Shown here one piece after another: positions 14,703 through 60,314 of a stretch of DNA of 64,000 bases; position 1 is the stretch's first letter, and the number at the start of each line of letters is the position of its first letter. A program made the translations under genes and the position numbers. Source of the stretch: Acidobacteriota bacterium (GTDB lineage: Bacteria; Acidobacteriota; Aminicenantia; Aminicenantales; Saccharicenantaceae); NCBI GenBank assembly GCA_033549365.1, contig JAWSUF010000002.1, forward strand, positions 286,082 to 350,081. Direction: 5' to 3'. The notes beneath the pieces are model-generated. The model was not told where the DNA came from, did not search any database, and worked only from the letters and a program-made list of their open reading frames with translations.

Positions 14703-14710
14703 CACAGGCC

Positions 14711-16658: not shown

Positions 16659-16659
16659 T

Positions 16660-18498: not shown

Positions 18499-18557
18499 TT
18501 TTTTACGGACTTATAAGCTTTTATAGCTGGCGGTAATTCCAGTCGAGGAGAGAGGAC

Positions 18558-18965: not shown

Positions 18966-18968
18966 GGT

Positions 18969-23101: not shown

Positions 23102-23135
23102 CATGACGGGCGACGATCAGAAGGGAGGGTGACCC

Positions 23136-24809: not shown

Positions 24810-24831
24810 TCCCAACAAGCGAGGTGCGTCC

Positions 24832-25110: not shown

Positions 25111-25137
25111 ACGGAATCCAAGGAAAGGTGACGTCCC

Positions 25138-27744: not shown

Positions 27745-27879
27745 CCCGGATTCGGTAAACCGAAAGAGCTTTGTGGACAACGCTGGAATCCCCCCGGTGA
27801 TCCGGGCGGGACATCCGGCCTCCCGGGGGTCCGAATGATTGGGAATTCTCCCGGGGGAGGCAACATATTGCAGGAGGGA

Positions 27880-43144: not shown

Positions 43145-44024
43145 ACCCGTGGCCGTTATCGGAGCCGGTCCGGCCGGGCTTGCGGCCGCCATGCAACTGG
43201 CCCGCATGGGGATATCCGCAAGGCTTTTGGAACGGGCCGATCCGGGCGGGTTGCTTCTGAATGCTCATTGGGTCGAGAATTATCCCGGGTTTCCGGACGG
43301 CCTGTCCGGCCCCGATCTCGTCCGCTTAATGCGGCGCCATGCCGAAAGTTTCGGCGCCGTTCTGACGAAGGATGAGATTGTCTCGATCGTGGACGAAGAC
43401 AAGGTTTTCCGGATCAAAGGCCGCGCCCGGAATTACCTGGCCCGCAGGATCGTTTTGGCCTCGGGAACAAAAGCCCGGGGGCCGGCCGGATGCGAAATTC
43501 CTCCGGAGATGGAGGGCCGCATCCACACCGAAGTCGTCGCCCTGCGCGAGGCCTCGGGTCTTCGGATTGCCGTTGTCGGAGCGGGCGATGCGGCTTTCGA
43601 CTATGCCATCGGTCTTTCGGAAAGGAATGATGTGACTCTCTTGAAACGCAGCGCCGGCGTCCGGTGCCTGTCTCTCCTCCGGGAAAGGGCCGCAAAAAAC
43701 GCATGCATCGACATCCGAAATCATGTGAACGTCCTCCGCCTGGCCCCGGTGCCGTCCGGCGGCGCATCTGTTTGCGGAACGTGGAAGGGAAGCGATTTCC
43801 GTCTGGACGTCGATGCCGTGATCTTCGCCGTCGGCCGCGATCCGGAGACGGGCTGTCTTTCTCGCGAACTTCTTGAAAACATCCCGGTGCTTCGCGCATC
43901 CGGCCGGCTTTTTCCGGCGGGGGACATCCATAACGGCCTCTGCCGGCAGGCCTCGATCGCCGCGGGAGACGGAATCCGGGCGGCCATGGAAATCCACAGG
44001 CTCATGAAGGAGGCCGGAGAATGA
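43134..44024 (+). CDS. FAD/NAD(P)-binding oxidoreductase (thioredoxin-reductase-like fold)
   Basis: Two dinucleotide motifs, VAVIGAGPAGLAAA and IAVVGAGDAAFDYA. Confidence 0.7.
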   Translation: MKVEPVAVIGAGPAGLAAAMQLARMGISARLLERADPGGLLLNAHWVENYPGFPDGLSGPDLVRLMRRHAESFGAVLTKDEIVSIVDEDKVFRIKGRARNYLARRIVLASGTKARGPAGCEIPPEMEGRIHTEVVALREASGLRIAVVGAGDAAFDYAIGLSERNDVTLLKRSAGVRCLSLLRERAAKNACIDIRNHVNVLRLAPVPSGGASVCGTWKGSDFRLDVDAVIFAVGRDPETGCLSRELLENIPVLRASGRLFPAGDIHNGLCRQASIAAGDGIRAAMEIHRLMKEAGE

Positions 44025-44974
44025 AAATCCTGGCTGCCGCGGGAACCGAGGATGTGGCCATGGTCTACATCGCCGATATCGGAGACGGACGCAAAATCGA
44101 GCTGGTCGAATCCGTTCAGCCGCCGATTCCGCGCCTCAGGAAATGGGTGCTTCTGATTTCCACGCTGTGCGGCTGTCCGATCGGGTGTGCGATGTGCGAC
44201 GCCGGAGGCGGTTATCAGGGTCTTCTTTCCAAGGACGAGATTCTGGCCCAGATCGATTTTCTGGTCCGCCGCCGTTATCCCGACGGACATGTCCCGTGCG
44301 AGCAGTTCAAGATCCAATTCGCCCGCATGGGGGAACCGGCGCTCAATCCGGCCGTGCTCGATGTCTTGGACGAACTGCCGTCGCGTTTGGACGCTCCCGG
44401 TCTTATGCCGTCTCTATCGACGATCGCCCCGGCCGGTGCAGAAGACTTTTTCGAAGCCCTGATCGACATCAAGCGCCGCCGTTATGCCGGGGGGCGTTTC
44501 CAGTTCCAGTTTTCCATCCATTCCACGGACGCGGCTTGGCGGGGCAAACTGATTCCCGCGAAGACGTGGAGCTTCTCCGAGATGGCCGCCTACGGACGCC
44601 GCTTTTTCGCTCCGGGCGACCGGAAGATCGTTCTCAATTTCGCCCTGCCGCGGGAAGCTCCGGTCGATCCCGCAATCCTGAAGGACCACTTCGATCCGGA
44701 ACTTTTTCTAATCAAGATCACGCCCCTCAACCCGACCTATCGAGCTCGCGACAACCGTCTTGCGTCCGCAGTCGATCCGGATGCCCCCGAGGCCGATGCG
44801 GCGGCGGCCGACTTCCTGCGTGCGGCCGGCTACCGGGTGATTGTGAGCGTCGGGGAAGCCGAGGAAAACCAAATCGGCAGCAATTGCGGGCAATATCTAC
44901 GCCGCCACCTGGAAAGCCCGGCCCCCCTGGCCGACGGCTATTCTTACCCTCCGTTGCTTGGCTTCGATAAGTAA
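44021..44974 (+). CDS. Radical SAM protein with an RlmN/Cfr-like core
   Basis: CGCPIGCAMC (Cx3Cx2C) and the MGEPALNP motif, which resembles the RlmN GEP motif. It is shorter than RlmN. Confidence 0.5.
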   Translation: MKILAAAGTEDVAMVYIADIGDGRKIELVESVQPPIPRLRKWVLLISTLCGCPIGCAMCDAGGGYQGLLSKDEILAQIDFLVRRRYPDGHVPCEQFKIQFARMGEPALNPAVLDVLDELPSRLDAPGLMPSLSTIAPAGAEDFFEALIDIKRRRYAGGRFQFQFSIHSTDAAWRGKLIPAKTWSFSEMAAYGRRFFAPGDRKIVLNFALPREAPVDPAILKDHFDPELFLIKITPLNPTYRARDNRLASAVDPDAPEADAAAADFLRAAGYRVIVSVGEAEENQIGSNCGQYLRRHLESPAPLADGYSYPPLLGFDK

Positions 44975-45813: not shown

Positions 45814-46815
45814 ATGAAAAAACTGGTATTTTTATTTGTTCTGGTTTCGCTGGTGGCCGCCCCGGTTTTAACCGCGGAGCAGGCGATCGTTCTTAAAGTC
45901 AAGGTTCAGGTCGCCAATGTTCGGGCCGAACCCGACATGAACAGCACCGTTGTCAAGAAAATCCCCGCCGACACGCTGCTCGAAGCCCGCCAGAGAATCG
46001 GCGACTGGTATGAGATCACCGTGACGGATGCCTCAGGAGCCGCCATATCGGGTTACATTCACCAGCAGGTTGTCGATGTTGTCGCCGGTGCGCCCAGGGA
46101 GCCGGAACCCGTCCGTGAAGAACCCCGGCGACCCGTCCGAGAGCCCGTCCGCGAAGAACCCCGTCAGCCCGTCGAAAGACGCATGGCGCCCGTCTCTTAT
46201 CGTTCCGACTACGGCATGGGCGGATTCAAGGCGATCGGCGGCCTGGCCATGGCCAGCCTCCGGTATCCCACCGAAGAAACCGCCGAATTCGATAAATACA
46301 AAAAATCCAAGATGGGCCTTGCCGGCGGAATCGGATTCGACAGCGGAGGACAGTTCGGTTTCGGCATGAACGTTCTTTACCTGCAGAAGGGCGTGAAATA
46401 TTCCGGCGAGGAAGACGGAGTCAAGTTCAGCTTCCCCATCAGCATTGACATGATCAGCCTTCCCGTCATGGCCAAGATCCGGTTTATGCCCGGCTCGACG
46501 CCGTATGCATTGGCCGGAGGCGAAGTGGCTTATGTTCTTTCTGCGAAGTCGAAGTATACGATCACGGATCTTGAGTCCGGGGAGAAGGAAACCGACACCG
46601 AGGACTTCAAGGACGATATCAACTCGATCGACTACGGAATCGTTTTCGGCCTGGGATATGAAATGAATACCGGGTCGTTTCCGATCTTCATCGAAGCCCG
46701 GTATCACCTCGGCTTGGCCAATCTCACGAAGGACAATCCGGATGAAGGCATCATCGCCGCGGAGAACTGGACCAAGACCAGCACAATCCTGATTGTGGGC
46801 GGCATCAGATTCTAA
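45814..46815 (+). CDS. Secreted protein: signal peptide, SH3-like domain, Pro/Glu/Arg-rich repeat linker, C-terminal outer-membrane beta-barrel domain
   Basis: Signal MKKLVFLFVLVSLVAAPVLTA. The SH3b-like stretch is ANVRAEPDMNSTVVKKIPADTLLEA...GDWYEI. The C-terminus has alternating hydrophobic beta-strands ending in aromatic-x-F. Confidence 0.6.
   Translation: MKKLVFLFVLVSLVAAPVLTAEQAIVLKVKVQVANVRAEPDMNSTVVKKIPADTLLEARQRIGDWYEITVTDASGAAISGYIHQQVVDVVAGAPREPEPVREEPRRPVREPVREEPRQPVERRMAPVSYRSDYGMGGFKAIGGLAMASLRYPTEETAEFDKYKKSKMGLAGGIGFDSGGQFGFGMNVLYLQKGVKYSGEEDGVKFSFPISIDMISLPVMAKIRFMPGSTPYALAGGEVAYVLSAKSKYTITDLESGEKETDTEDFKDDINSIDYGIVFGLGYEMNTGSFPIFIEARYHLGLANLTKDNPDEGIIAAENWTKTSTILIVGGIRF
46096..46180 (+). 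repeat. In-frame tandem repeat of about 36 nt inside the 45814-46815 CDS
   Basis: cccgtccgtgaagaaccccggc (46108-46129) and cccgtccgcgaagaaccccgtc (46144-46165), with a partial third unit. They encode PVREEPRRPVRE / PVREEPRQPVER. Confidence 0.45.
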
Positions 46816-46915: not shown

Positions 46916-47695
46916 TTATAAGATGAAGAAAAGACCGGCCGATAGGGCCGTTCCATGGGCGAAACCGACATCCAGAAGAAAGCCCAGACGTCTCCACGCC
47001 AGGGCTCGTCCGGAAATGCCGATGACGGGCGCCGTGATGAGGGAGGGGGTCCGGGGATCCCAAGCCCTGAGGGTGTCGAGTTCGAAACTTTCGCGGGCCT
47101 GAGCCCGGATCTCTCCCAGAGGTGTCCGCAAGACGGCCGATCCGTCGACATCCAAATTTCCCGTGAAGGGGAGGACGGCCGCCCCTCCATAAACGGAAAG
47201 GCGATATCTCTCGTTCCGGACGGCGTTCCAACGGGCGATCATGTTCACCATGACCGAACGGATGCGAACCGTGCCGTCTCCATGGGTTTCCAGCTCGCCC
47301 AGAGGAAATCCGAACAGGCCGATTTCGTGGCGGGAAGAAACCCGGAAGGGGATGCGGTAATCGGCCCAACCGATGCGGATACCCAGAGAAACCGCTCCCG
47401 GCTGGATGTGATGCCATGCGGCCAGGGAAAGATTTGTGCCCGAGGAATCCAGATCAGCCTGTACGGCATCGACGGAGACGATGCGATCCAGGTAGGCGGA
47501 GTCGATGAGTTGGACGAAAGCGCTCCGGATCGCGGCCTCGCTTTCCCTCTCGACGGGAGACCGGAATGGGGACAGAGTCCAGGGGCCCCAGGCGCATTCA
47601 AACTCCCATGTTTCGCGCTTGTCTTCGACCGGGCCGCCGAGCACCGCTCCGGAGACAAGGATCAGCAGGATTGTCCCGATGAATATTGCCTTCAT
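46916..47695 (-). CDS. Hypothetical secreted protein
   Basis: Signal peptide MKAIFIGTILLILVSGAVLG. No recognisable catalytic motif. Confidence 0.4.
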   Translation of the reverse strand: MKAIFIGTILLILVSGAVLGGPVEDKRETWEFECAWGPWTLSPFRSPVERESEAAIRSAFVQLIDSAYLDRIVSVDAVQADLDSSGTNLSLAAWHHIQPGAVSLGIRIGWADYRIPFRVSSRHEIGLFGFPLGELETHGDGTVRIRSVMVNMIARWNAVRNERYRLSVYGGAAVLPFTGNLDVDGSAVLRTPLGEIRAQARESFELDTLRAWDPRTPSLITAPVIGISGRALAWRRLGFLLDVGFAHGTALSAGLFFIL

Positions 47696-47756
47696 TTGAA
47701 GCCATCATATCAGAAGAAACGCCTCTTCCAAAATCCGGCTGTTTCCACAATCGAGG

Positions 47757-49250
47757 TTGGCGCCTCGTGTTGAATCGTATTGCCGCCTAAGGTATGATTT
47801 CCGGGAATTGAAAACGATCTCATCCCTATGTCCGGAATGCCGAAAAGTGGTCGAGGCCCGGGTTTATCTGGACGGCGGGCGGATTCTGCTCGACAAGACG
47901 TGCCCCCGCCACGGCCGTTTTCAGGATGTCTATTGGTCCGATTCCCGGCAGTTCGAAAGGTTCGAGTCGTTTCGCCATGAGGGCGAAGGCATCGAGAACC
48001 CGCGGACTCGGGAAGACCGCGGCTGTCCTCTCGACTGCGGCCTCTGTCCCGGCCATAAATCCACCACCCTTTTGGCGATCGTGGATGTGACCAACAGATG
48101 TAACCTCCGCTGCCCCGTCTGCTTCGCGAATTCCGGGGTCCGCGGTTATGTCTACGAACCGACCCGGGATCAAATCCGGGCCATGCTGGAAAACGTCCGC
48201 AACAACCGGCCCCTGCCGACCCCGGCGCTGCAGTTTTCCGGAGGAGAGCCGACTCTCAGGCCCGACCTGGCCGACCTCGTGGCCATGGCCCGGGACCTCG
48301 GTTTCCTGAATATCGAGGTCAACACCAACGGGATCCGGCTGGCCGAAAGCCTCGATTTATGCCGAAGTCTGAAGGATGCCGGTCTGCATACGGTCTATCT
48401 TCAGTTCGACTCGCCGGATGCCGAGGTTCATCGCCGCATACGGGGCCGGGACCTTGTCGAAATCAAAAGACAGGCGATCGAGAACTGCCGCCGGGCGGAG
48501 ATCCCCAGCGTTGTACTGGTCGTCACCCTGATCAAAGGCGTGAATGACGGGCATCTCGGAGAGATCATCCGCTATGCGGCCCAAAACCGCGACATCATCC
48601 GCTGCGTCAACATTCAACCGGTGGCCTTCACCGGACGGAGGCCTGACGAAGCGGACCGGACCGGGCGCATCACGATCCCGGATGTTCTGGCCCTTGTCGA
48701 GGAGCAGACACAGGGCGACATCCGGGCCTCGGATTTTTATCCGGTGCCAAGCGTCGTTCCCGTCGCCAAGGCCGTCGGCGCTCTGAAGGGCGAGGTTTTT
48801 CCCGAGTTCACCGCCCATCCCCACTGCGGCGCCGGCACTTATTTTTTTGTCGAAGACGGCCGGATCACGGCGATCAACCGGCACGTGAATGTGAATAAAT
48901 TTCTCCGTTCCCTGGGGCGCATATCACGAACGGCCGCGAAAGGATATCGGAGCTTGGCGGGCCTGATGCTCCTTTTCTCTCTCCGCCATGTCAAGATCGG
49001 CATGTTGAGGAGATTTCTTCTGCCCATTTTAAGAATGGGAACGTTTGAGGCCCTGGCCGATTTCCACTTCAAGGTCGTGCTGGTTTCCTGCATGCATTTC
49101 ATGGATGCCTGGAATTTCGACGGGGAGCGTGTGCGGCGCTGCGTCATTCATTATGCCGTCCCGGACGGCCGGATCATCCCCTTCTGCGCCTACAACAATC
49201 TCGGCTACCGGGATGAGGTGGAGCATGCCTTCAAAACCGTCCGTGATTGA
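47757..49250 (+). CDS. Radical SAM enzyme with an N-terminal rubredoxin/Zn-ribbon-like Cys4 module and an extra CxxxCxxC cluster; candidate tetraether/membrane-spanning-lipid synthase (Tes/GDGT-MAS/Mss-like)
   Basis: CPEC...CPRHG, then CPLDCGLCPGH, then the canonical rSAM motif IVDVTNRCNLRCPVCFANSG and FSGGEPTL. About 480-497 aa. There is no in-frame ATG near the 5' end, so the start is probably TTG at 47757 or 47808. Confidence 0.55.
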   Translation: MAPRVESYCRLRYDFRELKTISSLCPECRKVVEARVYLDGGRILLDKTCPRHGRFQDVYWSDSRQFERFESFRHEGEGIENPRTREDRGCPLDCGLCPGHKSTTLLAIVDVTNRCNLRCPVCFANSGVRGYVYEPTRDQIRAMLENVRNNRPLPTPALQFSGGEPTLRPDLADLVAMARDLGFLNIEVNTNGIRLAESLDLCRSLKDAGLHTVYLQFDSPDAEVHRRIRGRDLVEIKRQAIENCRRAEIPSVVLVVTLIKGVNDGHLGEIIRYAAQNRDIIRCVNIQPVAFTGRRPDEADRTGRITIPDVLALVEEQTQGDIRASDFYPVPSVVPVAKAVGALKGEVFPEFTAHPHCGAGTYFFVEDGRITAINRHVNVNKFLRSLGRISRTAAKGYRSLAGLMLLFSLRHVKIGMLRRFLLPILRMGTFEALADFHFKVVLVSCMHFMDAWNFDGERVRRCVIHYAVPDGRIIPFCAYNNLGYRDEVEHAFKTVRD

Positions 49251-49986
49251 ACGCCTGAGGGACCGCCGGGAGGTCCTGCATTTCACGTTGATCGATCCCG
49301 ACAGCCAAACCCCCAAGCGGCTGGCCGAAGTCGTTCGGATGTGTTGCCGGTTCGGCACGGATGCCTTCATGGTCGGCGGGTCCGGTCCTTTCGGACGGCG
49401 CCGGCTGGAAACCGCCCTGAAGACGATCCGCAAACATACGGACCGGCCCGTCATTCTGTTTCCGAACTCCGCCGAATCCGTATCCCGGCACGCGGACGAA
49501 ATATTTTTCATGTCGCTTCTCAACTCCCGCGGATCTCGGTTTCTGATCGGCGAGCAAGTTCGGGCTGCCGCCGCTGTAAAAAGGGCCGGCCTCCGCCCGA
49601 TTTCCATGGCCTATATCGTTGTCGGCACGAGCCGGAAGCCGACGACCGTGGAAAAGAAGGTCAGACTGGAAGCCATCGGAAGTTGCGATGTTCGAAAAGC
49701 CAGGGACTATGCGCTCGCGGCCGAATATCTCGGAATGAGCTGTGTCTATCTTGAGGCGGGATCGGGCGCGGACAAGCCCGTGCCGCCGCGGATGATCCGG
49801 GCCGTGAGGGGGGAAATCTCGGTGCCTCTCATTGTTGGTGGAGGCATCCGCAGCCCGCGCCGGGCCCTCCAAACGGCGGAAGCCGGCGCCGACGCCGTCG
49901 TCACCGGCACGATCGTCGAGCGGGATCCGGCCCGTCTCGAAGCCATCATCCGGACCATCAAAGCGTTCCGGCCCGGCCGTCGATAA
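49225..49986 (+). CDS. Geranylgeranylglyceryl phosphate synthase family protein (GGGPS/PcrB)
   Basis: LHFTLIDPD, FMVGGS, YLEAGSGA and PLIVGGGIRS motifs of the (beta/alpha)8 GGGPS/PcrB family. Start is ATG 49225 or GTG 49243, overlapping the end of the upstream rSAM gene. Confidence 0.8.
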   Translation: MPSKPSVIERLRDRREVLHFTLIDPDSQTPKRLAEVVRMCCRFGTDAFMVGGSGPFGRRRLETALKTIRKHTDRPVILFPNSAESVSRHADEIFFMSLLNSRGSRFLIGEQVRAAAAVKRAGLRPISMAYIVVGTSRKPTTVEKKVRLEAIGSCDVRKARDYALAAEYLGMSCVYLEAGSGADKPVPPRMIRAVRGEISVPLIVGGGIRSPRRALQTAEAGADAVVTGTIVERDPARLEAIIRTIKAFRPGRR

Positions 49987-51072
49987 ATGGCGAAGGGAAC
50001 GACGATATCCGGCTTTTTATCTCTCATCCGGCTTCCCAACGGTTTGATCGCCGTTTTATCGACGGTGATGGCCGGCGTCGTGACCGCCCGGTCCTTCGAT
50101 ATCCGGCCCGCGGTTTTTCTCGGGGCCGGGATCGTCTGGCTCATCCTTTCGGGAGGAAACGCCCTCAATGATTTTTTTGATCGCCATATCGACAAGGTGA
50201 ACAGGCCGCGGAGGCCGATTCCTTCGGGTCGGATCACCGGCCGGCAGGCCGTCGTTTTCTCCTGGATTCTGCTTTCGCTGGGTCTGGGGCTGAGCCTGGC
50301 TCTTGGCCTCAAAGTCGCGGCCTTCGCCGCCGCGAACATCCTGATTCTTGTCATCTATGCCCGTTGGTCCAAGTCCCTGGGTCTGCTCGCCAATCTCGCG
50401 GTCGGCTGGCTGACGGCATCGGTCTTTCTCTTCGCTGCGATCATTCAGGGACATCCGGATGTCAATATCCTGGCCTTGAGCCTGAGCGCGTTTTTCATTA
50501 TGACATCGAGAGAAATCCTCAAGGACATCGAGGATATGGAAGGTGACAGGGAAGGAGGCGCGGCGGCGACCCTGCCGATCCGCGTCGGTCCGGGCCGGGC
50601 GCGAACGGCGGCCGTTCTGGCGGCTCTTCCCGCGGTTCCCCTGATTGTTCTTCCGTCCTTGAATCTGGGGATGAACGTTCTTTTCCCGGTTTTCGCCGTT
50701 CCCGCCGCCGCAACCGTCGTTTATTCCTTCTTTCCGAATCCGCGTGCGGCCCAGAGGTCGATCAAAATCGCCGTGATTCTGGTTCTCCTGGCCTATGTCT
50801 TCGGTGTCTTGTCGACGGACAAGAGAAGCCGAGGCTCAGGACATGAGGTATTTGACGGCGTAACGGGCGAGATCGGTGGCGTTTTTCGTCAGGATTTTCG
50901 TTATCCCGGCAAAAGATCCCCGGGAAAGATCGTCCAGTGTCTCTCCCGAGATCAGCCGGGCGAGGCGATTCAGGTCCGTGTCGGAGAGACGTTCGTGGAA
51001 TGTGTTGAGCTTGAGCATCCGCGCCGTTTTCCGGCCGTGTTGCGCTTTCCAGAGCGTTTCATAACGGCTTAA
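49987..51072 (+). CDS. UbiA-family prenyltransferase; digeranylgeranylglyceryl phosphate synthase (DGGGPS)-like
   Basis: NALNDFFDRHIDKVNRPRRPIPSGRI (the first Asp-rich UbiA motif), a second motif at REILKDIEDMEGD, and 8-9 TM helices. The last 75 aa or so (past about 50830) overlap the convergent GGR gene and look like stop-less read-through. Confidence 0.75.
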   Translation: MAKGTTISGFLSLIRLPNGLIAVLSTVMAGVVTARSFDIRPAVFLGAGIVWLILSGGNALNDFFDRHIDKVNRPRRPIPSGRITGRQAVVFSWILLSLGLGLSLALGLKVAAFAAANILILVIYARWSKSLGLLANLAVGWLTASVFLFAAIIQGHPDVNILALSLSAFFIMTSREILKDIEDMEGDREGGAAATLPIRVGPGRARTAAVLAALPAVPLIVLPSLNLGMNVLFPVFAVPAAATVVYSFFPNPRAAQRSIKIAVILVLLAYVFGVLSTDKRSRGSGHEVFDGVTGEIGGVFRQDFRYPGKRSPGKIVQCLSRDQPGEAIQVRVGETFVECVELEHPRRFPAVLRFPERFITA

Positions 51073-52245
51073 GCTTTCGCGCGTGACGGAGTTCTTTCGG
51101 ACGGCATCGGCGGCGATTTCGGCCGCCATCCGGCCCGACATCATGGCCAGTTTCATCCCGCCTCCGGTCGCCGGGTTGACGAGGTGACCGGCGTCTCCGA
51201 CAATCAGCAGGCCGTCTCCCGCAAGAGCCGGGATCGATCCGTCCGTCGGGACTCCGCCGCAGTTGATCTCGACGGCCGAGGCCCGCCCGAAAATATCCGG
51301 ACGATCGCGGATGAACAGGTCCAGGAAATCTTTTGCGCTTTTCCCCTCGGATTTGTCCGTCTTGATGCCGAGGCCGACGTTGGCCATGCTCGGTCCCTTG
51401 GGGAAGATCCAGGCGTATCCGCCCGGGGCAATGCCGTTTCCGAAATAGAGGTGGATCGCGGTTTCGTCGATATGGCGAAGGCCGGCCATCTCATATTGGA
51501 TTCCGCTGATGTAGGCTTCCTGCCTGTTTCTGCTGTCCAGTCCGGCCCATTTGGCGATCATGGAGTCCGGCCCGTCCGCCGCGATCACGATTCGGGCCGT
51601 GATGAATCCCTTTTTGCCGCGGCTTCGGAATTCCACGCCCGCAACGGTTCCATGATCCCGGATAACGCCGACAGCCTCCGTTTGAATCAGATAGCGCGCT
51701 CCCGCCAGAACGGCATTCCGGGCCAGGTGTTTTTCAAAAACCTTTCTTTCGAGGATATAGCCCCAATCCTCCTGCGATCGGGATTTCCACCGCACGGCCG
51801 TTCCGTCCGGCGCATGGAGAACGGCGCTTTGGATGCGGGCGGCCACCCAGCCGGGATCGACCTCCATGTCCAGATCTTTGAAGGTTTGGGAGCTGATGCC
51901 CTCGGCGCATCGTTTCGGCGCGCCGATTTCCCGCCGCTTTTCGACGACGATCGTCCGGATCCCCGACCGGGCCAGACGTTCGGCGCAGACACTGCCGGCG
52001 GGTCCGGCGCCCACGACGACGACATCCGTATCGATCGTCTCCGACGAAGTCGAACACGTCTTGTCCGAGGTTCGGGAAACGGCCCGGACGGGGCAGAAAG
52101 CAACGCATAACCCGCACGCTGTGCAGGCGGCCTCATCGAGATGGAGTCCGCCGTGCCCCAGGATCAGGGCTTCCGACGGACAGATTCCGACACATCCTCC
52201 GCAGATACAGCAGATCTCCCGATCGATACGGATGTTTCCGTTCAT
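50836..52245 (-). CDS. Geranylgeranyl reductase family FAD enzyme with an N-terminal 2x[4Fe-4S] ferredoxin domain
   Basis: True start MNGNIRIDREICCICGGCVGICP...CTACGLCVAFCP (GAGGG RBS upstream), then the FAD motif VVVVGAGPAGSVCAERLARSG. The GGR-type C-terminus reads GDAGHLVNPATGGGM. Confidence 0.8.
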   Translation of the reverse strand: MNGNIRIDREICCICGGCVGICPSEALILGHGGLHLDEAACTACGLCVAFCPVRAVSRTSDKTCSTSSETIDTDVVVVGAGPAGSVCAERLARSGIRTIVVEKRREIGAPKRCAEGISSQTFKDLDMEVDPGWVAARIQSAVLHAPDGTAVRWKSRSQEDWGYILERKVFEKHLARNAVLAGARYLIQTEAVGVIRDHGTVAGVEFRSRGKKGFITARIVIAADGPDSMIAKWAGLDSRNRQEAYISGIQYEMAGLRHIDETAIHLYFGNGIAPGGYAWIFPKGPSMANVGLGIKTDKSEGKSAKDFLDLFIRDRPDIFGRASAVEINCGGVPTDGSIPALAGDGLLIVGDAGHLVNPATGGGMKLAMMSGRMAAEIAADAVRKNSVTRESLSRYETLWKAQHGRKTARMLKLNTFHERLSDTDLNRLARLISGETLDDLSRGSFAGITKILTKNATDLARYAVKYLMS

Positions 52246-52310
52246 GTCGCCCTCGGTTTTTTTGCGGCGTTTCGGCGCTCCGCCGATTATAGACGGCCCG
52301 GCCTTGCCGT

Positions 52311-53390
52311 TCAACCCGGTTTGGGATCGGAGAGCCGGGAGATGTCCCGGCCGGGGTTTCCGGAAACAATCAGGGTGGTGCCCACTGTCATGACCATGAC
52401 GACAAGATAGAATTGAAATAAAACCGCATAGGGAAGGAAGCGGAATTGCCGGAAATGTCTCATGGGGTTGAGCATGATCATGATGTCGGCGAGCAGACGA
52501 ATCATCACGAATAATGGAAGGGATGTTGTGAATACCGGGTAAATGGAGACGCCCAGATAAAGCGCCATAAGAAACGGGACCAGAATTCTCCATCCTCGCA
52601 TCGGATAAAAGAAGCCGGAGGTCCAGCGCTTTTTTTGCCGGATATTGTCCTTCAGGCTTCTCATGGGCCGGGTGAAAACGGCTGTGTCGGCATGGAATAT
52701 CAGGCGAGCTCCCCCACATCGATGCTTGTGACAGGCCCGGACAAGCCGATAATCCAACAGGGCACCCGAGCTCATTTTTTGATATCCGCCGGCCTGCACA
52801 TAAGCCTTTTTACTGAATGCCATGTTTCCCCCGAACAAGCTGCATGTCCGAAAGGTTCGCGCCAGGGATTTCCCGATGGAAAACATGTAGAGGAATTCCA
52901 GGGCTTGCATATCGGCCGCGATCCGGGTGTTTTCGCGGATCAAATAGGCCCCGCCCACAATGGCATCTCCGCCGCGGAGCCGGGAGGACAGTTCGGATAT
53001 CCACCTTGACCCGGCGACACAGTCGGCGTCGATCTGCATGATGATCTCTCCCCGGGCTTTTTCGATACCGAACGCCAGAGCCTTTTTTCTTCCCGGAGAT
53101 CCTCCTCTCAGCCGGAAAGAGCGAAAATTCTCCAGCGAATCCGAATAGACTCGGATGATCTCCGGAGTCTTGTCTTTGGAATGATCGTCCACGATAACGA
53201 CCTCGTATTGATCCCGGGGCCAGTCCTGGTTCTTGAGCGATTCGAGGCACTCCCGGATGTTGTTCTCCTCGTTCCGCGCGGTCAGGACAACAGAGACAAA
53301 CCGGCGCGGTTCGTCGGCGGTCGGAGTGTCATCCGTCTTGGCCGTGAGGAAAAACGCAGCGAGGGACACGGCCAGATAAAGCATGTACAC
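52311..53390 (-). CDS. Family-2 glycosyltransferase, membrane-anchored
   Basis: N-terminal TM, then VSVVLTARNEE...VVIVDDHSKD (GT-A DxD region), then C-terminal TM helices. Confidence 0.7.
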   Translation of the reverse strand: MYMLYLAVSLAAFFLTAKTDDTPTADEPRRFVSVVLTARNEENNIRECLESLKNQDWPRDQYEVVIVDDHSKDKTPEIIRVYSDSLENFRSFRLRGGSPGRKKALAFGIEKARGEIIMQIDADCVAGSRWISELSSRLRGGDAIVGGAYLIRENTRIAADMQALEFLYMFSIGKSLARTFRTCSLFGGNMAFSKKAYVQAGGYQKMSSGALLDYRLVRACHKHRCGGARLIFHADTAVFTRPMRSLKDNIRQKKRWTSGFFYPMRGWRILVPFLMALYLGVSIYPVFTTSLPLFVMIRLLADIMIMLNPMRHFRQFRFLPYAVLFQFYLVVMVMTVGTTLIVSGNPGRDISRLSDPKPG

Positions 53391-53446: not shown

Positions 53447-54613
53447 ATGGCCAAACAGTATCCTGAGAACGGTCGAAATTGTCAAATGTCCTTGAAGATT
53501 CTTGTTGTCGGGGCGGGATTGAGCGGCGCCGCAGTCGCCAGGCTGCTTCGGGATCGGGGACATCGCATCCTTGTCGTCGAAAAGGAGAGCCATGTCGGCG
53601 GTCTGTGCATCACGAGAATCAGCCCCAACGGACTGCAATACGAACCCTTCGGAGCGAGGACGTTTCACTCCCGGAAACCGGATGTCATCGCTTTTGTCCG
53701 AAGATTCGCCGAATTCAACGGCTATGTTCACCGCAAGGGGATCATAATCCATGGGAAACTGTTCCCGTATCCGATCAGCCGGGAATCCCTGTCGGCCCTC
53801 GATTCCCGGGAGAGGATCTGCCGTGAACTTGAAAATCTGCCGGACGAGGTTGACGCGACGAATTTCGAAACGGCCGCGCTTTCGCTTTTCGGAGAGACGC
53901 TTTATCGATTGTTCATTCGGAATTATACAACCCGGATGTGGGGGGTGGATCCGGTCCATTTGTCCGCCGACATGGCCTTAAGGAGACTTGAGCTCCGGGA
54001 TGGCCCCGCCGGGGACTTGTTTCGCGGCGAATGGCAGGGCTTGCCGTCCCGCGGCTATTCGGCGTTTCTGGAAAGCATGCTCGAAAGCATTCCCGTGAAG
54101 CTCCATACGCCGTTTGACACCGGCGATTCGTATGATGTTGTGGTGTCATCGGCTCCGATCGACGAGATGTTGGCTTTCCGTTTCGGACGGCTGGCCTATC
54201 GGAGTCTTCGGTTCGATTATCAGGCCGACGCGCCCTGGGAACATGACGCTTTTGGGACCATCAATCTTCCCCAGGATGGGACATACATCAGGAAATGCAA
54301 CTTCAAGATCCTCCACCGCCGGCAATCCCGCCGCAATTGGATTCAATACCAGGAACCCGTGGCTGCGGAAAACGGCCGAATTCCCATGTATCCGGTCGCT
54401 ACGACGGAGAACGAGCAGGCTTACATCAGGTGTTTAAGGGCGATCTGCGCGACCCGGATTTGCCCGGTGGGAAGAATGGGGTTTTCGAAATATTTGAACA
54501 TGGACCAAGCCGTTGAAGTCGCTTTCAGAATGTTGCCGGTCATTGAGCATTATCCCCGGCTCAGCCCGGCGGTCCGGTTCGAAAAAATTGCGGCCATCCG
54601 GGCGAAATATTGA
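53447..54613 (+). CDS. glf: UDP-galactopyranose mutase
   Basis: KILVVGAGLSGAAVA FAD motif. It has the overall UGM length and conserved Trp/Tyr-rich substrate-loop region. An alternative start MSLKIL lies at 53486. Confidence 0.75.
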   Translation: MAKQYPENGRNCQMSLKILVVGAGLSGAAVARLLRDRGHRILVVEKESHVGGLCITRISPNGLQYEPFGARTFHSRKPDVIAFVRRFAEFNGYVHRKGIIIHGKLFPYPISRESLSALDSRERICRELENLPDEVDATNFETAALSLFGETLYRLFIRNYTTRMWGVDPVHLSADMALRRLELRDGPAGDLFRGEWQGLPSRGYSAFLESMLESIPVKLHTPFDTGDSYDVVVSSAPIDEMLAFRFGRLAYRSLRFDYQADAPWEHDAFGTINLPQDGTYIRKCNFKILHRRQSRRNWIQYQEPVAAENGRIPMYPVATTENEQAYIRCLRAICATRICPVGRMGFSKYLNMDQAVEVAFRMLPVIEHYPRLSPAVRFEKIAAIRAKY

Positions 54614-54646: not shown

Positions 54647-56224
54647 TCACCGGCAGGCTTCGGGATCGCAGGGGAATTTCGTCCGAAGCATGAAATCGGC
54701 GAAGCGGTTGGAAATGCCGGCCGTGCGCGCGCCCGTCAGCCGCCTCCACATTCCGATGCCTTTGGCTCCCACTCCGACGATTTTCAGGATGGGCGCCGGC
54801 ACCTCGCTTCCCCAGATCGAGACGTTCAATTCCCAACAGCGCTCGATGACGGCCAGTTGCGTGTCCGTCAGGCCGTCCAGGCTGATCCGCTTCGATCGGC
54901 CCAGGGGCGTCCGGTCCAGGGGGATGAAAAGGATCGGGGTGTAAAAGAGAACGGCGTTCTGCCGGTGGAGCCGCTCGATGAGCCCGGCCGTCCGAAGGGC
55001 GTCGTTTTCGTCCTCACCCGGCCACCCCACGATGATCGTGGCCAGGGGATAGATCCGGTTGGCGTTGAATGCGGCGACACCCTCACAGACGATGTCTGGC
55101 CAGCCGTCCGCGTCCAGGGGAAGGGCTTTTCCCGGCATGTGCCGGCTCATGATCCGCGGGCTTCCGGATTCGATGCCGATTTCAACCGTGGCGTAAGGTT
55201 TGCCTCTCAGGGTCCGCGACGATTTTTCGACGAAGATGGGGGCGAGTTCGGGCAGCAACTTGGGATCGACGAGGACGGGTGCGATCGAGGCGTGAGACAG
55301 GTGGATATGCCGGAGGCCCGGCCGGGCCGCCACGGCCTCGAAAAGGCCGGCGAGAGCTTTCCGGTCCGGCTCGAAGTTGCGTTGCGAACGGTAGAGAAAC
55401 ATGTCGTCGGTGACGATGAAGGCCGCATCGCCGCCGCCCCGGATGTTCGTATCGATCTCGCTCAGGACGGTTTCGAGGGCCACGGAGTGCTTTTTCTGCA
55501 GGTTCGGCGAACAGAAGGCACAGCCTCTTCCGCAACCCCGGGTGATTTCCACGTCGCCGAATATCGCCGGGGCGCGAATCGCGGGAGCTTCGCCGCTGCG
55601 TCCGGACGGCTTGAGGCGGATGACCCGGGGCGCCGCTCCTCTGCGGATGGATTCGAATACGGCCGGAATGTCCGACTCCGACCGTCCCGACACCAGATGA
55701 TCGATGCCCAGTTCCGCCTGTTTTCCGGAATGATCGATTTGCCAGACGGCTTCCCCCCCGACGACGATTTTGAAGGTTTTCCCGCGTTTGAGCCGTCGGG
55801 CTTTCCGGAGCAGTCGTTTGAATTCATAGGCATTGACGGACTCTCCCCCGAATCCCACCAGGGAGTTGTAGGTCGTGCTGACGTAGGCGAGCCCCAGGGG
55901 GTCCATGGTCGAAATGCCGAGAATTTCGGTCCCGTCGCCGACGCAAGATTCCAGATGGTCGGGATGGCAGACGACAACGCCGCCGTCGTCTTCGGCCTCG
56001 GACAAGGCCGCCTCGATTTTTCTCAGGCCGTAAGGCGCGAAGCGGGCGCGGCCGTCGGCATGGGCGACCGGAGCAAAAAACTTTTCCAGGTATAATCCCG
56101 CAGGAATCCGGGGGAACGTGCATTTGAAGGCTTCGAAGGCATCGGCGGGCAATCCGATTTCGGGGCCGAATTGGCTCATTTCGGCGCGCGAGGCCGTCAA
56201 GACGATCGAATAACCGCGGCCCAT
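54647..56224 (-). CDS. B12-binding-domain radical SAM protein (class B rSAM)
   Basis: N-terminal Rossmann-like cobalamin domain (ILGISTMDPLGLAYV) followed by the rSAM motif TRGCGRGCAFCS. The start is uncertain (56224 or 56281). Confidence 0.6.
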   Translation of the reverse strand: MGRGYSIVLTASRAEMSQFGPEIGLPADAFEAFKCTFPRIPAGLYLEKFFAPVAHADGRARFAPYGLRKIEAALSEAEDDGGVVVCHPDHLESCVGDGTEILGISTMDPLGLAYVSTTYNSLVGFGGESVNAYEFKRLLRKARRLKRGKTFKIVVGGEAVWQIDHSGKQAELGIDHLVSGRSESDIPAVFESIRRGAAPRVIRLKPSGRSGEAPAIRAPAIFGDVEITRGCGRGCAFCSPNLQKKHSVALETVLSEIDTNIRGGGDAAFIVTDDMFLYRSQRNFEPDRKALAGLFEAVAARPGLRHIHLSHASIAPVLVDPKLLPELAPIFVEKSSRTLRGKPYATVEIGIESGSPRIMSRHMPGKALPLDADGWPDIVCEGVAAFNANRIYPLATIIVGWPGEDENDALRTAGLIERLHRQNAVLFYTPILFIPLDRTPLGRSKRISLDGLTDTQLAVIERCWELNVSIWGSEVPAPILKIVGVGAKGIGMWRRLTGARTAGISNRFADFMLRTKFPCDPEACR

Positions 56225-56292
56225 GACGACGACTATAGTTTGAGAGAACCCGGGTGTCAATCTCGCCGCGGCCTGCCCCATAAGGAGTTTCT

Positions 56293-57111
56293 ATGGTATA
56301 TTCTTTCCTGAGAGAGATGCGACCGGACATGAAACACAACGGATCTTTGAGGCGCACCATCGGAACCGCGGTCTGCCTCTGCATCCTCTGTTCCGCGGCC
56401 GCCGCCTTCGAGCCGGGGAAACGAGCCGAACACAATCCCAGGGAGATTCTGGAGCGCGTCGACAAGATGATGCACGGCGATTCCTCCTCCGGCATCCTGG
56501 TCATGACGGTTCAGGCCGAGCATTGGACTCGGACGCTCGAGGTGCAATTTTCGACGAAAGGCGATGACCGGTTCCTGGTGCGGATTCTCTCTCCCAAAAA
56601 GGAGAAGGGCACGGCAACCCTGAGATCCGGGTCGGACATCTGGAACTACCTTCCCAAAACCAACCGCGTCATCAAGGTGCCGTCCGTATCGCTGGCCTCC
56701 TCCTGGATGGGAAGCCACTTCACGTACGACGACATGTTGAAGGACAGGCGGCTGGCCGATGATTTCCTGTCGGCCGTCACGAATGAAGAAGCTACGGAAT
56801 CCGGACTTCTGGTGGAGATCACCGGCACTCCGAAACCGGATGCGCCCGTCGTTTGGGGCTCGATCCGGGTCGTGGTGAACACGGATCTGGACCTGCCGCG
56901 CTGGATTCGATACTACGACGAAAACGGCGGGTTGGTGCGGACGCTGGAATTTTCCGACATCGGACCTCTGGGCGGCCGGCGGCTTCCCCGGCGCCAACGT
57001 ATGACTCCCGCGGAGAAACCCGGGGAGTTCACGGACGTCGTCTATCGCGATCTTGTCTTCAATCCCGACCTGGACGACGCATTCTTCTCGCTGCGCGCGC
57101 TGCAAAGATAA
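56293..57111 (+). CDS. LolA-like outer-membrane lipoprotein carrier/sorting protein
   Basis: Signal peptide, then about 230 aa of beta-rich sequence. It sits directly upstream of two FtsX-type permeases and an ABC ATPase (a LolCDE-like arrangement). Confidence 0.5.
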   Translation: MVYSFLREMRPDMKHNGSLRRTIGTAVCLCILCSAAAAFEPGKRAEHNPREILERVDKMMHGDSSSGILVMTVQAEHWTRTLEVQFSTKGDDRFLVRILSPKKEKGTATLRSGSDIWNYLPKTNRVIKVPSVSLASSWMGSHFTYDDMLKDRRLADDFLSAVTNEEATESGLLVEITGTPKPDAPVVWGSIRVVVNTDLDLPRWIRYYDENGGLVRTLEFSDIGPLGGRRLPRRQRMTPAEKPGEFTDVVYRDLVFNPDLDDAFFSLRALQR

Positions 57112-57123
57112 CGGGAATCATCG

Positions 57124-58344
57124 GTGTCTATTCTTGCCTATGCCTGGCGCAACCTGGGGCGAAACAGGAAGCGCACCATGATCACGCTCACGTCTCTGGC
57201 CTTCGCCACGGCGGTTCTCATCGTCAGTTTCGCTCTTCTGGACGGGCTCATCGGCGATATCGAAAACAACATCACTTCGATATCCGCAGGCGAGGTTCAG
57301 ATCCATGCTCCGGGCTATTTCGATGAGCGATCTCTCTACCGGACGCTCGATGATCCGGCGGGAATCCTCCGGATCGTCGAGCAATCGGCCGCCAAAGCGG
57401 CCCCGCGAAGCTACGGCGACGGCCTTCTGGCCCGCGACGTCCGGTCCTCCGGCTGCCGGTTTTGGGGCGTCGATCCGGCCGCTGAGAGAAAGGCATTCTC
57501 ATTGCCGGAAAGGATCCTGGCCGGCGCGTTCCTGTCCGATCAGCCGGAAAGAGAGATCGTTCTGGGAGAAAACCTGGCCCACTCCCTGAGGGCCGGCGTC
57601 GGCGATGAGCTGGATGCGGTCGTGCAGGCGGCGGACGGTTCGCTAGGAAACGAGGTCTTCATCCTTCGCGGGATTCTTCAAACCTCCGGCGCTGAAATCG
57701 ATCTGTCGGCCGCGATCATTCATGAGCGGGACTTCGCCGATCTTTTCGTCTCCGGCGGTGCCGTTCACGAAATTGCGGTCAATTCCGGCGGGCGCATTTC
57801 AGCGGATCGATTGAGAAATCGGATTCGCGCCGCCGCCCCCGGTGTCGATGTGAAGACCTGGCGGGAAATCCTCCCCCTGTTTGCGGGAACGGTGCAGAAC
57901 GCCCGGAAAGCCGTCTGGGTCTTCAGCATCTGCTTTTTTCTTGTTGCGGGTCTGGGCATCACGAACACGATGCTCATGGCGACTTACGAACGCACCCGGG
58001 AGTTCGGGATCATGAAAGCTCTGGGGACGGCGCCGCGGCGGATCATCGGCATGATTCTTGCTGAATCCGCGCTTCTCTGCCTGTGCGCCACGATCGCCGG
58101 TGCGGCGTTGGGGGCGGCCGCCTCACTCTATCTTGCGGATACAGGACTGGATCTCGGGGGATTTCCCATAAAAATGAAAATGACGACCTTCATCCACAGC
58201 GCGGTCTGGCGGGCCGCTCTCGGCTGGAAAAACATCATGTTGCCGGTTCTGTGCATCTGGGCGGTCTGCATTCCGGCCGCACTTTACCCGGCTTTGACCG
58301 CGGCGCGCCTGGATCCCGTTCGGACTCTGCATGGCCGGTATTGA
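57124..58344 (+). CDS. FtsX-like ABC permease (MacB/LolC-type) with a large periplasmic domain
   Basis: GTG start. N-terminal TM, a periplasmic domain of about 200 aa, three C-terminal TM helices and the FtsX motif region ATYERTREFGIMKALG. Confidence 0.75.
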   Translation: MSILAYAWRNLGRNRKRTMITLTSLAFATAVLIVSFALLDGLIGDIENNITSISAGEVQIHAPGYFDERSLYRTLDDPAGILRIVEQSAAKAAPRSYGDGLLARDVRSSGCRFWGVDPAAERKAFSLPERILAGAFLSDQPEREIVLGENLAHSLRAGVGDELDAVVQAADGSLGNEVFILRGILQTSGAEIDLSAAIIHERDFADLFVSGGAVHEIAVNSGGRISADRLRNRIRAAAPGVDVKTWREILPLFAGTVQNARKAVWVFSICFFLVAGLGITNTMLMATYERTREFGIMKALGTAPRRIIGMILAESALLCLCATIAGAALGAAASLYLADTGLDLGGFPIKMKMTTFIHSAVWRAALGWKNIMLPVLCIWAVCIPAALYPALTAARLDPVRTLHGRY

Positions 58345-58365
58345 TCCGGGGCGAAGGAGTATCCG

Positions 58366-59604: not shown

Positions 59605-60314
59605 CGGACATCATACGCGTTCGGGGGTTGACCAAGCATTATGTCAAAGACAGCCTTGTCGTTCCCGCGCTTCAAGGCGTCGACCTGGCTCTGAAGGAGG
59701 GCGATTTCGCGGCCGTGGCCGGCCCGTCCGGGTCGGGAAAAACAACCTTGCTCAATCTCATCGGGGGGTTGGATCGGCCCACCGCAGGCTCTGTCGAGGT
59801 GGAAGGCCGATTGTTGAACGAACTTTCGGAGGCCGAACGGACGCGTTTGCGGTGTGACCGCATCGGTTTTGTTTTTCAGACGCACAATCTTTTTCCCGTT
59901 TTGACGGCGCTCGAAAACGCCGAATATGTGCTCATGCTCCAAGGGCGGCCCAAGGATGAGCGCCGGGATATCGTCCGGGCGCTTCTGAAGGATGTGGGAC
60001 TCGAAGGCCTTGAGAATCGCTTTCCCAGGGAGCTTTCAGGCGGACAACAGCAGAGAGTGGCCATCGCCCGGGCCGTCGCGGCCCGGCCGGCCATTGTTCT
60101 GGCCGATGAGCCGACGGCGAATGTGGACGCCCGGACCGCGGCCGGCATTCTGGACCTGATGAAACGATTGAATGAGGAAAAACGGGTGACCATGCTGTTC
60201 TCCTCGCATGATCCCGAGGTGCTGAAAAGATCGGAAAAAATCTTTTATATCAGGGACGGCCGAATCAGCGGTCTTTCGCCGCAGGAGATGATAACGGGTT
60301 CTGATGAGCGATAA
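59601..60314 (+). CDS. ABC transporter ATP-binding protein (LolD/MacB-ATPase-like)
   Basis: Walker A GPSGSGKTT, signature LSGGQQQRV, Walker B VLADEPT. Confidence 0.85.
   Translation: MTDIIRVRGLTKHYVKDSLVVPALQGVDLALKEGDFAAVAGPSGSGKTTLLNLIGGLDRPTAGSVEVEGRLLNELSEAERTRLRCDRIGFVFQTHNLFPVLTALENAEYVLMLQGRPKDERRDIVRALLKDVGLEGLENRFPRELSGGQQQRVAIARAVAARPAIVLADEPTANVDARTAAGILDLMKRLNEEKRVTMLFSSHDPEVLKRSEKIFYIRDGRISGLSPQEMITGSDER

Follow-up and report, generated by a model that had tools for sequence, protein, structure and literature searches.

A predicted tetraether lipid synthase gene in a conserved ether-lipid operon of an Aminicenantes-like bacterium

Do some bacteria naturally make isoprenoid tetraether lipids of the archaeal type? 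The question is raised by an open reading frame (ORF) in a 64,000-nucleotide stretch of contig JAWSUF010000002.1 (referred to here as the window), which a sequence-only reading had put forward as a candidate tetraether lipid synthase (Tes). No bacteria are known to make glycerol dialkyl glycerol tetraethers (GDGTs), and the bacterial homologues of Tes have been proposed to make branched GDGTs (brGDGTs) from fatty-acid lipids (PMC8941075). We found that the ORF almost certainly encodes a member of the Tes/GDGT-MAS family, as judged from sequence profiles and a structural model. It belongs to a conserved operon in which tes is followed by the genes for geranylgeranylglyceryl phosphate synthase (GGGPS) and for an enzyme resembling digeranylgeranylglyceryl phosphate synthase (DGGGPS), with a ferredoxin-fused geranylgeranyl reductase gene beside it. 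The host is an Aminicenantes-like (Acidobacteriota) Gram-negative bacterium, and the genomic context of the operon is bacterial. Taken by itself the enzyme is unremarkable: it adds a new member to the known Tes family, and the current NCBI annotation models would name it correctly. The unusual part is the bacterial host and the conserved operon, not the enzyme itself.

The ORF as first delimited runs from a TTG at 47757 to the TGA stop codon at 49248-49250 (47757..49250, +; 497 aa), with an in-frame TGA upstream at 47697. Residue numbers of the window Tes are counted from TTG 47757 throughout, and the gene in the extent that we prefer is as follows.

47808..49250 (+): tes, tetraether lipid synthase (predicted Tes/GDGT-MAS orthologue), 480 aa when begun at the preferred TTG 47808; identified with NF045702, 7TOL and Foldseek

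The protein scores 619.3 bits against the NCBIfam equivalog NF045702 (rSAM_GDGT_ether, 'tetraether lipid synthase Tes'), for which the cutoff is 450, and the alignment spans residues 22-494 and profile positions 3-484 of 486. It also matches the GDGT-MAS structure 7TOL/7TOM (MJ0619 of M. jannaschii) over residues 16-493 with E=1.9e-152. This is the sole close solved structure, the next PDB sequence match being MoaA at 1e-10. The sequence-only reading had staked its proposal on similarity reaching beyond the generic radical S-adenosylmethionine (SAM) core, and both of these alignments do so. Pfam places an HMPTM-type zinc ribbon (Zn_ribbon_HMPTM) at residues 18-61 and Radical_SAM at residues 111-273 (E=9.7e-31). 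No Mss family was present among the 25 NCBIfam matches listed for the protein. An AlphaFold model made with 17 homologues as input had a mean local confidence (pLDDT) of 72 and a predicted template-modelling score (pTM) of 0.76. When this model was compared to 7TOL with Foldseek, the template-modelling (TM) score was 0.80/0.81 over 493 columns at 46% identity, and the next fold was MoaA with a TM score of 0.44. The model and the 7TOL alignment together point to the four-domain architecture of a rubredoxin-like domain, an N-terminal cluster domain, a radical SAM partial TIM barrel and a C-terminal cluster domain. The ORF is more than a chance occurrence because it has both a curated family match above cutoff and a full-length match to a solved structure. 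With the metal ligands also aligned, as described next, the proposed Tes identity is well supported.

The metal sites of GDGT-MAS were described by Lloyd et al. 2022 (PMC9433317). They comprise a rubredoxin-like iron bound by C9X2C12X20C33X2H36, an N-terminal cluster bound by C73/C77/C80 and 'a conserved histidine', and the CX3CX2C motif of the radical SAM cluster. Met439 is a labile ligand of the C-terminal cluster, and both it and Tyr459 show full conservation among the archaeal homologues (PMC9433317). The window Tes carries the Cys motifs C25-P-E-C28, C49-P-R-H52, C90-PLD-C94-GL-C97-PG-H100 and C115-NLR-C119-PV-C122. All the published GDGT-MAS metal ligands are conserved in it, along with Met439 and Tyr459, and this gives four predicted sites.

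47829..47912 (+): rubredoxin-like mononuclear Fe site, C25-X2-C28-X20-C49-X2-H52, spacing identical to C9X2C12X20C33X2H36 of GDGT-MAS
48024..48056 (+): N-terminal auxiliary [4Fe-4S] site, C90/C94/C97 and likely H100, aligned with C73/C77/C80 and H83 of GDGT-MAS
48099..48122 (+): radical SAM cluster motif C115-X3-C119-X2-C122, aligned with C98/C102/C105 of GDGT-MAS
48825..49187 (+): C-terminal auxiliary [4Fe-4S] region, C357/M446/C462/Y466/C477, equivalent to C338/M439/C455/Y459/C470 of MJ0619

Ligand conservation was read from an alignment of 56 sequences, in which all the mapped ligand positions are invariant except the tyrosine. The four residues of the rubredoxin-like site are the same in 56 of 56 aligned homologues, as are C90/C94/C97/H100 and the positions of C357, M446, C462 and C477 (56/56 each). 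The tyrosine, which is Y466 in the window Tes, is kept in all 27 members of the bacterial clade described below, and the sequences that lack it are two distant bacterial homologues. H100 is likely to be the His ligand of the N-terminal cluster. We predict C357, C462 and C477 to be the Cys ligands of the C-terminal cluster because they are invariant across the family; PMC9433317 lists no C-terminal Cys ligands. C445 lies next to M446 (equivalent to C438 of MJ0619) and varies across the family, and is therefore probably not a ligand. Alignment with MJ0619 had been suggested as a check, and in it the Cys and His residues do match the published auxiliary-cluster ligands. Some details of the sequence-only reading have to be changed. 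Its N-terminal module of the Cys4 type is in fact a Cys3His site, C-X2-C-X20-C-X2-H, which is exactly the rubredoxin-like motif of GDGT-MAS. Of its three Cys clusters, the reported motifs are all present, but a fourth metal site at the C-terminus (M446 with C357, C462 and C477) was overlooked.

The start of the gene also needs some revision. It had been stated that no in-frame ATG occurs before about residue 137, so that translation must begin at TTG or GTG. A non-ATG start is indeed needed, and the first in-frame ATG is at residue 143 (nt 48183). Upstream of C25 the reading frame offers TTG 47757 and TTG 47808 as its only canonical starts, and GTG 47847 falls after the CPEC motif. The TTG at 47757 from which the ORF was first drawn does exist, but we have a modest preference for TTG 47808, which gives 480 aa and has a promoter-like site in front of it.

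47770..47798 (+): promoter-like site TTGAAT-17 nt-TATGAT, sigma-70-like, its -10 ending 9 nt before TTG 47808; consensus match only

The preference comes from the position of this site, the start of the Pfam domain at residue 18, the lengths of the homologues and the disorder of residues 1-14, which have a pLDDT of <50 in the Tes model. The homologue N-termini begin 7-10 residues before the first Cys, which fits a start at TTG 47808. The tes transcript would then have little or no leader and be translated from this codon. The same geometry is seen in the orthologues at two related loci (L060 and L062), where TTGAGA-17-TAAACT lies 10 nt before an ATG. A second strain, represented by the JGI contig L001, has one substitution only relative to the window in 47696-47860 and is uninformative on the choice of start. 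The JGI call of a 99%-identical protein (P0001) begins at the GTG equivalent to 47847 and is 467 aa long, which removes C25 and C28. Gene callers can thus place the tes start at an internal GTG and lose two metal ligands. The JGI name of that protein, '7,8-dihydro-6-hydroxymethylpterin dimethyltransferase', is outdated.

The setting of tes among other genes is what turns an ordinary enzyme into a question about bacterial lipids. Downstream of it are three genes that could supply its substrate.

49225..49986 (+): GGGPS (PcrB family); TIGR01769 and NF003198; ATG start 26 nt inside tes
49987..51072 (+): UbiA-family prenyltransferase, DGGGPS-like, its ATG directly after the GGGPS stop; NF009521 the best family, 6M31 the best structure
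50836..52245 (-): digeranylgeranylglycerophospholipid reductase-like geranylgeranyl reductase, convergent with the tes operon and carrying a 2x[4Fe-4S] ferredoxin domain fused at its N-terminus
52286..52314 (-): promoter-like site TTGAAC-17-TATAAT upstream of the reductase, 10/12 matches; consensus match only

The overlap of the tes stop with the GGGPS start was correctly seen in the sequence-only reading: the TGA at 49248-49250 and the ATG at 49225 give an overlap of 26 nt, and a GAGG Shine-Dalgarno sequence lies 6 nt upstream of this ATG. We infer that GGGPS is translationally coupled to tes. GGGPS passes the cutoffs of both TIGR01769 (215.7 bits vs 161.55) and NF003198 (269.5 vs 247), and its best PDB matches are archaeal GGGPS (E=2.6e-54, about 1e-50, vs about 1e-10 for heptaprenylglyceryl phosphate synthase PcrB). 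We name the next gene DGGGPS-like because its score is under the cutoff of the DGGGPS equivalog, though DGGGPS is both its best family and its best PDB match (6M31 of M. jannaschii, E=3.9e-34). The homologous core of this UbiA protein ends near 50802, and the remaining 89 codons (50803-51072) are an extension. The ORF has 361 aa compared to 272-277 aa in every related locus having one, and L001 shares the extension. The extension overlaps 237 nt of the 3' end of the convergent reductase gene (50836-51072 (-)). The ratio of non-synonymous to synonymous differences per site (pN/pS) over these 89 codons comes to 0.46 when read in the UbiA frame and to 0.33 in that of the reductase, and does not distinguish which frame is constrained. 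The reductase scores 235.8 bits against TIGR02032 (cutoff 158.8) and lies under the cutoffs of the archaeal equivalog models. It matches PDB 3OZ2 with E=3.5e-70 and Pfam GGR_cat and Fer4, with the ferredoxin-domain matches at residues 2-64, and it starts at ATG 52245 with a GAGGG Shine-Dalgarno sequence. The fused two-cluster ferredoxin domain is found in the window and in all the related loci, and suggests a built-in electron donor for the reductase.

This arrangement is not particular to one assembly. L001 has 95.5% DNA identity to the window over 16.3 kb with the same gene order; the arrangement was thus observed in each assembly independently. Eight further loci were taken via contigs of close relatives, seven by Tes and one by GGGPS (P0003, P0009, P0010, P0013, P0021, P0023, P0068 and P0262). 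In all ten loci (window, L001 and the eight others) tes is followed by GGGPS, with a junction that ranges from the 26-nt overlap to an 11-nt gap; among the eight further loci the range is from a 14-nt overlap to the 11-nt gap. The UbiA gene follows GGGPS in 9 of the 10 loci (7 of the 8 further ones). The ferredoxin-fused reductase is present in 8/8 of the further loci and a polyprenyl synthase gene is in the cluster of 7/8, while IspH/LytB is nearby in two. The coupling to ether-lipid genes suggested in the sequence-only reading is therefore conserved in related loci. Between the window and L001 tes has 20.5 synonymous and 5.5 non-synonymous differences (pN/pS 0.09), the UbiA core has a pN/pS of 0.04, and tes is under purifying selection.

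In none of 57 GTDB loci, nearly all archaeal and with flanks of up to 10 kb, did tblastn detect GGGPS, UbiA or the reductase near tes. The scan of GTDB genomes was seeded by exact 8-residue peptides of a single Tes protein; it gave archaeal Tes and three distant bacterial homologues and returned none of the close bacterial clade. Absence of this clade from public genomes was considered and is ruled out by NCBI metagenome-assembled genomes (MAGs) and entries that carry it (GCA_042585425.1, GCA_964633715.1 and MCJ7579061.1). One operon is in an NCBI MAG labelled Acidobacteriota bacterium, and a clade member at least 90% identical to P0025 is labelled Candidatus Aminicenantes bacterium. A tes-GGGPS-DGGGPS operon occurring naturally in bacteria was not reported in the full-text literature searched, the coverage of which was incomplete, so novelty is unproven.

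Several other genes of the window bear on the identity of the host.

45814..46815 (+): outer-membrane beta-barrel protein with SH3 domain (Pfam OMP_b-brl_2, E=4.6e-18, and SH3_3), located 1 kb upstream of tes; its translation shows a signal peptide and a C-terminal Phe
46916..47695 (-): 259-aa protein with signal peptide, divergent from tes, recurring near the operon
56293-60314: LolA-like gene, two MacB/FtsX permeases and an ABC ATPase, about 5 kb downstream of the operon

The outer-membrane protein (OMP) barrel gene near tes marks a Gram-negative bacterial host. For SucC, the succinyl-CoA ligase subunit of the window, the nearest named homologues are about 79% identical and mostly from Candidatus Aminicenantes. 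The window also encodes a GntR regulator and a histidine kinase. It has no tRNA or Rfam match and hence no RNA marker for taxonomy. The GC content of the window is 59.7%; the operon has 0.59-0.61 vs the window mean of 0.597, the profile is flat across the operon junctions, and no compositional signs of recent transfer were found at the operon. The related loci have similar surroundings, with resistance-nodulation-division (RND) pumps, OMP barrels, a TonB-dependent receptor and ribosomal protein S21. In five lineages (L063, L065, L067, L070 and L071) the operon is flanked by OMP barrel genes and by RND/MMPL-type pumps together with membrane-fusion proteins. These pumps and OMP genes, in place of which the window has the LolA-like, MacB/FtsX and ABC ATPase genes, could be a route of lipid export to the outer membrane. 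The divergent 259-aa protein has no Pfam or NCBIfam match, and homologues with 31-34% identity are near the operon in L060, L065/66 and L071/72. Its gene has a TTGGAA-16-TATGAT consensus match ending 8 nt before the ATG and may be leaderless too.

Where the synthase gene came from was addressed with a neighbour-joining tree of Tes over 476 columns, with support given as bipartition frequencies over 200 replicates. The window Tes falls in a 27-member bacterial clade with 98% bootstrap support, which also holds all six of the Tes proteins from the eight further loci that are in the tree. This clade groups with Bathyarchaeia at 98% support and is nested among TACK and euryarchaeal Tes. After the 99%-identical P0001 the closest Tes proteins are unnamed metagenome sequences (57-65% identity), followed by those of Bathyarchaeia (55-61%). 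Two distant ordinary bacterial homologues, at 35% identity and without Tyr459, are outside the archaeal-type group. The most likely source of tes is an archaeon related to Bathyarchaeia, and the transfer would be old enough for the gene to have acquired a host-like composition. For the GGGPS of the operon the closest named relatives outside the bacterial clade are Altiarchaeota. Since Tes is sister to Bathyarchaeia and GGGPS nearest to Altiarchaeota, the operon may have been assembled as a mosaic of more than one archaeal source, which we regard as a lead only.

What would these genes do together? In the pathway that we propose, GGGPS and the UbiA enzyme would attach two geranylgeranyl chains to glycerol phosphate via ether bonds, and the reductase, fed by its own ferredoxin domain, would saturate these chains to phytanyl. 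Tes would then act as GDGT-MAS does, whose chemistry runs through a C-S intermediate on a [4Fe-4S] cluster (PMC9433317). SAM would be reductively cleaved at the C115/C119/C122 cluster to give a 5'-deoxyadenosyl radical, which would take H from the terminal methyl carbon of a phytanyl chain. The resulting lipid radical would be stored through a C-S bond to the C-terminal [4Fe-4S] cluster until a second SAM-derived radical, acting on a second chain end, allows coupling to a C40 biphytanyl chain. Two such rounds between two lipids would lead to GDGT via glycerol trialkyl glycerol tetraether (GTGT); one intramolecular round would lead to macrocyclic archaeol. We think it rather probable that the Tes of this Aminicenantes-like bacterium is functional, with an isoprenoid substrate and a biphytanyl product in vivo. 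The broader statement, that Aminicenantes-type bacteria naturally make isoprenoid tetraethers (GDGT, GTGT or macrocyclic archaeol) from a conserved operon with a Bathyarchaeia-like tes, is put forward more tentatively and may well be true.

Other explanations of the locus have to be weighed against this one. The enzyme might couple fatty-acid-derived chains such as iso-C15 into iso-diabolic acid or brGDGT-type lipids, with its prenyl-ether neighbours serving another purpose. This role has been proposed for bacterial Tes homologues, notably those of Acidobacteria (PMC8941075), to which the host is related, and in crystals of GDGT-MAS the lipid pockets contained phosphatidic acids of E. coli, so these pockets tolerate bacterial lipids (PMC9433317). 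However, the homologues behind that idea are about 32-42% identical to archaeal Tes (PMC8941075), and the two distant ones that we sampled are those at 35% identity without the tyrosine, whereas the window Tes joins the Bathyarchaeia proteins in the tree with 98% support and shares 56-61% identity with them. Moreover, tes overlaps or abuts GGGPS in nine distinct lineages, together with the DGGGPS-like gene, the reductase and usually a polyprenyl synthase, and we consider the fatty-acid role unlikely. About equally improbable in our view is that an operon working on isoprenoid chains makes only diether, macrocyclic diether or minor lipids of a specialised kind, used for example under stress or in the outer membrane, and not bulk tetraethers. 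GDGT-MAS yields macrocyclic archaeol as well as GDGT, and the Tes homologue MA_1114 gave traces of macrocyclic archaeol only (PMC8941075, PMC9433317). GDGT is also toxic to E. coli (PMC12042123), and the pumps and OMP genes flanking the operon in five lineages would fit the export of a specialised lipid. The sequence does not separate GDGT-forming from macrocycle-forming enzymes, but the closest characterised relatives make GDGT.

Two further explanations would remove the question altogether. The contig could be archaeal, or a chimeric join of an archaeal lipid island to bacterial DNA, given that the best characterised relatives of the four lipid genes are all archaeal and that the window holds Hdr- and Mvh-like genes common in methanogens. 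We hold this to be very improbable in view of the bacterial genes within 1-5 kb on both sides (the OMP barrel at 45814-46815, and LolA-like and MacB at 56293-60314), the uniform GC across the junctions and the same gene order over 16.3 kb in a second strain. The eight distinct loci from other samples also set the operon among RND pumps, OMPs, a TonB-dependent receptor, S21 and IspH, and it was found in none of the GTDB loci sampled, which are nearly all archaeal. Even less credible is a paralogue with another function, either a TrsS-type radical SAM (seleno)protein or a pterin methyltransferase. The TrsS model NF045646 does match with 402.6 bits, but this falls short of the cutoff (490), and its best matched stretch is limited to residues 21-329, compared to residues 22-494 above cutoff for the Tes model. 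The pterin function is suggested by the JGI name of P0001 and by the N-terminal Zn_ribbon_HMPTM call of Pfam; however, the pterin methylase assignment of MJ0619 was not corroborated by Lloyd et al., who showed it to be a tetraether synthase (PMC9433317), and the gene context here is lipid synthesis and not pterin synthesis.

Beyond these rivals, several observations weigh against natural tetraether synthesis in this host and should be kept in view. Activity, substrate and product are all inferred, being read entirely from homology and gene order. No glycerol-1-phosphate (G1P) dehydrogenase, CDP-archaeol synthase or geranylgeranyl diphosphate (GGPP) synthase gene was found in the 64-kb window, and a complete pathway is thus unproven. 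The UbiA protein reaches 209.8 bits against its best NCBIfam family, DGGGPS NF009521, under the cutoff of 296. Neither TTG has a well-spaced Shine-Dalgarno sequence, though most genes of the window do, and starting at TTG is unusual where a transcript has little or no leader. The taxonomic label of the host comes from one housekeeping protein (SucC) and from MAG labels, and the Tes tree is a neighbour-joining tree of 476 columns with limited sampling. From the literature, the working hypothesis of the field for bacterial Tes homologues is the fatty-acid-based synthesis of brGDGTs (PMC8941075). When E. coli was engineered to make GDGT, the synthesis proved strongly deleterious, and the authors conclude that GDGT is an archaeal innovation (PMC12042123).

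Comparison with the known systems shows where this locus stands. GDGT-MAS MJ0619 (Lloyd et al. 2022, PMC9433317) has the same length and four domains as the window Tes at 46-48% identity; unlike MJ0619, the window tes has a bacterial host, an apparent translational coupling to GGGPS and a TTG start. MA_1486 of Methanosarcina acetivorans and Maeo_0574 of Methanococcus aeolicus belong to the same NCBIfam equivalog as the window Tes, which is about 51% identical to a Methanosarcinales Tes. Their function was shown by expression in M. maripaludis (PMC8941075), whereas that of the window Tes is predicted. The Tes proteins of Bathyarchaeia, known from many MAGs, are the closest named relatives and the sister group, but in the Bathyarchaeia loci sampled tes is not adjacent to GGGPS, DGGGPS or reductase. 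The bacterial homologues of Koribacter, Solibacter and Edaphobacter (Zeng et al. 2022) share the superfamily, a bacterial host and the Cys/His/Met ligands; they have 32-42% identity to archaeal Tes and were not reported with GGGPS or DGGGPS (PMC8941075). Mss of Thermotoga and Thermoanaerobacter (Sahonero-Canavesi et al. 2022) is also a bacterial radical SAM enzyme that joins lipid tails tail-to-tail. It is treated in the literature as a separate enzyme acting on fatty acids, and we set it apart from the window Tes by this description.

Two further systems are bacteria with archaeal-type lipid genes. Candidatus Cloacimonetes and other bacteria of the FCB group carry GGGPS and DGGGPS, and as in the window G1P dehydrogenase was not seen nearby (Villanueva et al. 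2021, PMC7852524). Villanueva et al. could not judge the tetraether capacity of Cloacimonetes (PMC7852524), and Tes was not found in Cloacimonadota (PMC11868695), unlike the lineage of the window, which has tes in the same operon as GGGPS. The same set of GGGPS, DGGGPS, geranylgeranyl reductase and Tes was brought together in a Gram-negative bacterium by engineering E. coli for GDGT (Chen et al. 2025, PMC12042123). That combination is artificial and led to an SOS response and lysis, while the one described here is natural, conserved across lineages and under purifying selection. Chen et al. also state that organisms with hybrid membranes are unknown (PMC12042123).

The operon makes the question of archaeal-type tetraethers in bacteria directly testable, with the whole gene set on a short piece of DNA. 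If the proposed function is correct there would be natural hybrid archaeal/bacterial membranes, and isoprenoid GDGTs in anoxic sediments would have a bacterial source that has gone unrecognised. This would bear on the 'lipid divide' and on models of membrane transition. It would also bear on the assignment of isoprenoid GDGTs to archaeal sources when they are used as biomarkers or climate proxies in anoxic settings.

Further genes around the operon may modify its products. One of them is a second radical SAM gene.

54647..56281 (-): 544-aa radical SAM protein, Pfam Radical_SAM at residues 244-434, recurring beside the tes cluster

Pfam, NCBIfam and PDB searches with this protein give only generic radical SAM matches or weak ones to a B12-binding/radical SAM family (TIGR04013). 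Homologues with 56-61% identity are in the clusters of L062, L067 and L069, and one with 33% identity is beside Tes in the Bathyarchaeia locus L024. It is a candidate lipid- or tetraether-modifying enzyme, for example a ring synthase or methylase, and is possibly Grs-like. Three related lineages have a different radical SAM protein of 601-603 aa between the reductase and tes (L063 7837-9648, L065 8071-9876 and L070 3786-5597); it carries a clear B12-binding domain and is absent from the window. Directly adjoining the reductase in the window are a GT2 glycosyltransferase at 52311-53390 (-) and a UDP-galactopyranose mutase at 53447-54613 (+), which may be head-group genes for glycolipids; the L069 cluster also holds a GT2, 49% identical to that of the window.

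Some observations from the rest of the window can be added. A 317-aa protein at 44021-44974 (+) has a C-x-C-x3-C-x2-C motif and weak RlmN/Cfr-like radical SAM similarity, with no Pfam match, and is conserved in L001. Succinyl-CoA ligase is encoded at 9870-12036, just upstream of a dense block of anaerobic energy metabolism at 12286-29496. This block contains an Mvh/Vhu-like NiFe hydrogenase, HdrA2-like and CCG-domain proteins, acetate kinase, a TfrA-like fumarate reductase, a 2-oxoacid:ferredoxin oxidoreductase and a class I fumarase, which gives this bacterial contig a redox machinery with an archaeal flavour. The genes at 34291-36273 (+), first for a D12-class adenine methyltransferase and then for a DpnII-like endonuclease, look like a type II restriction-modification pair, and their GC at the third codon position is 0.58-0.59 vs about 0.7-0.8 in most genes of the window.

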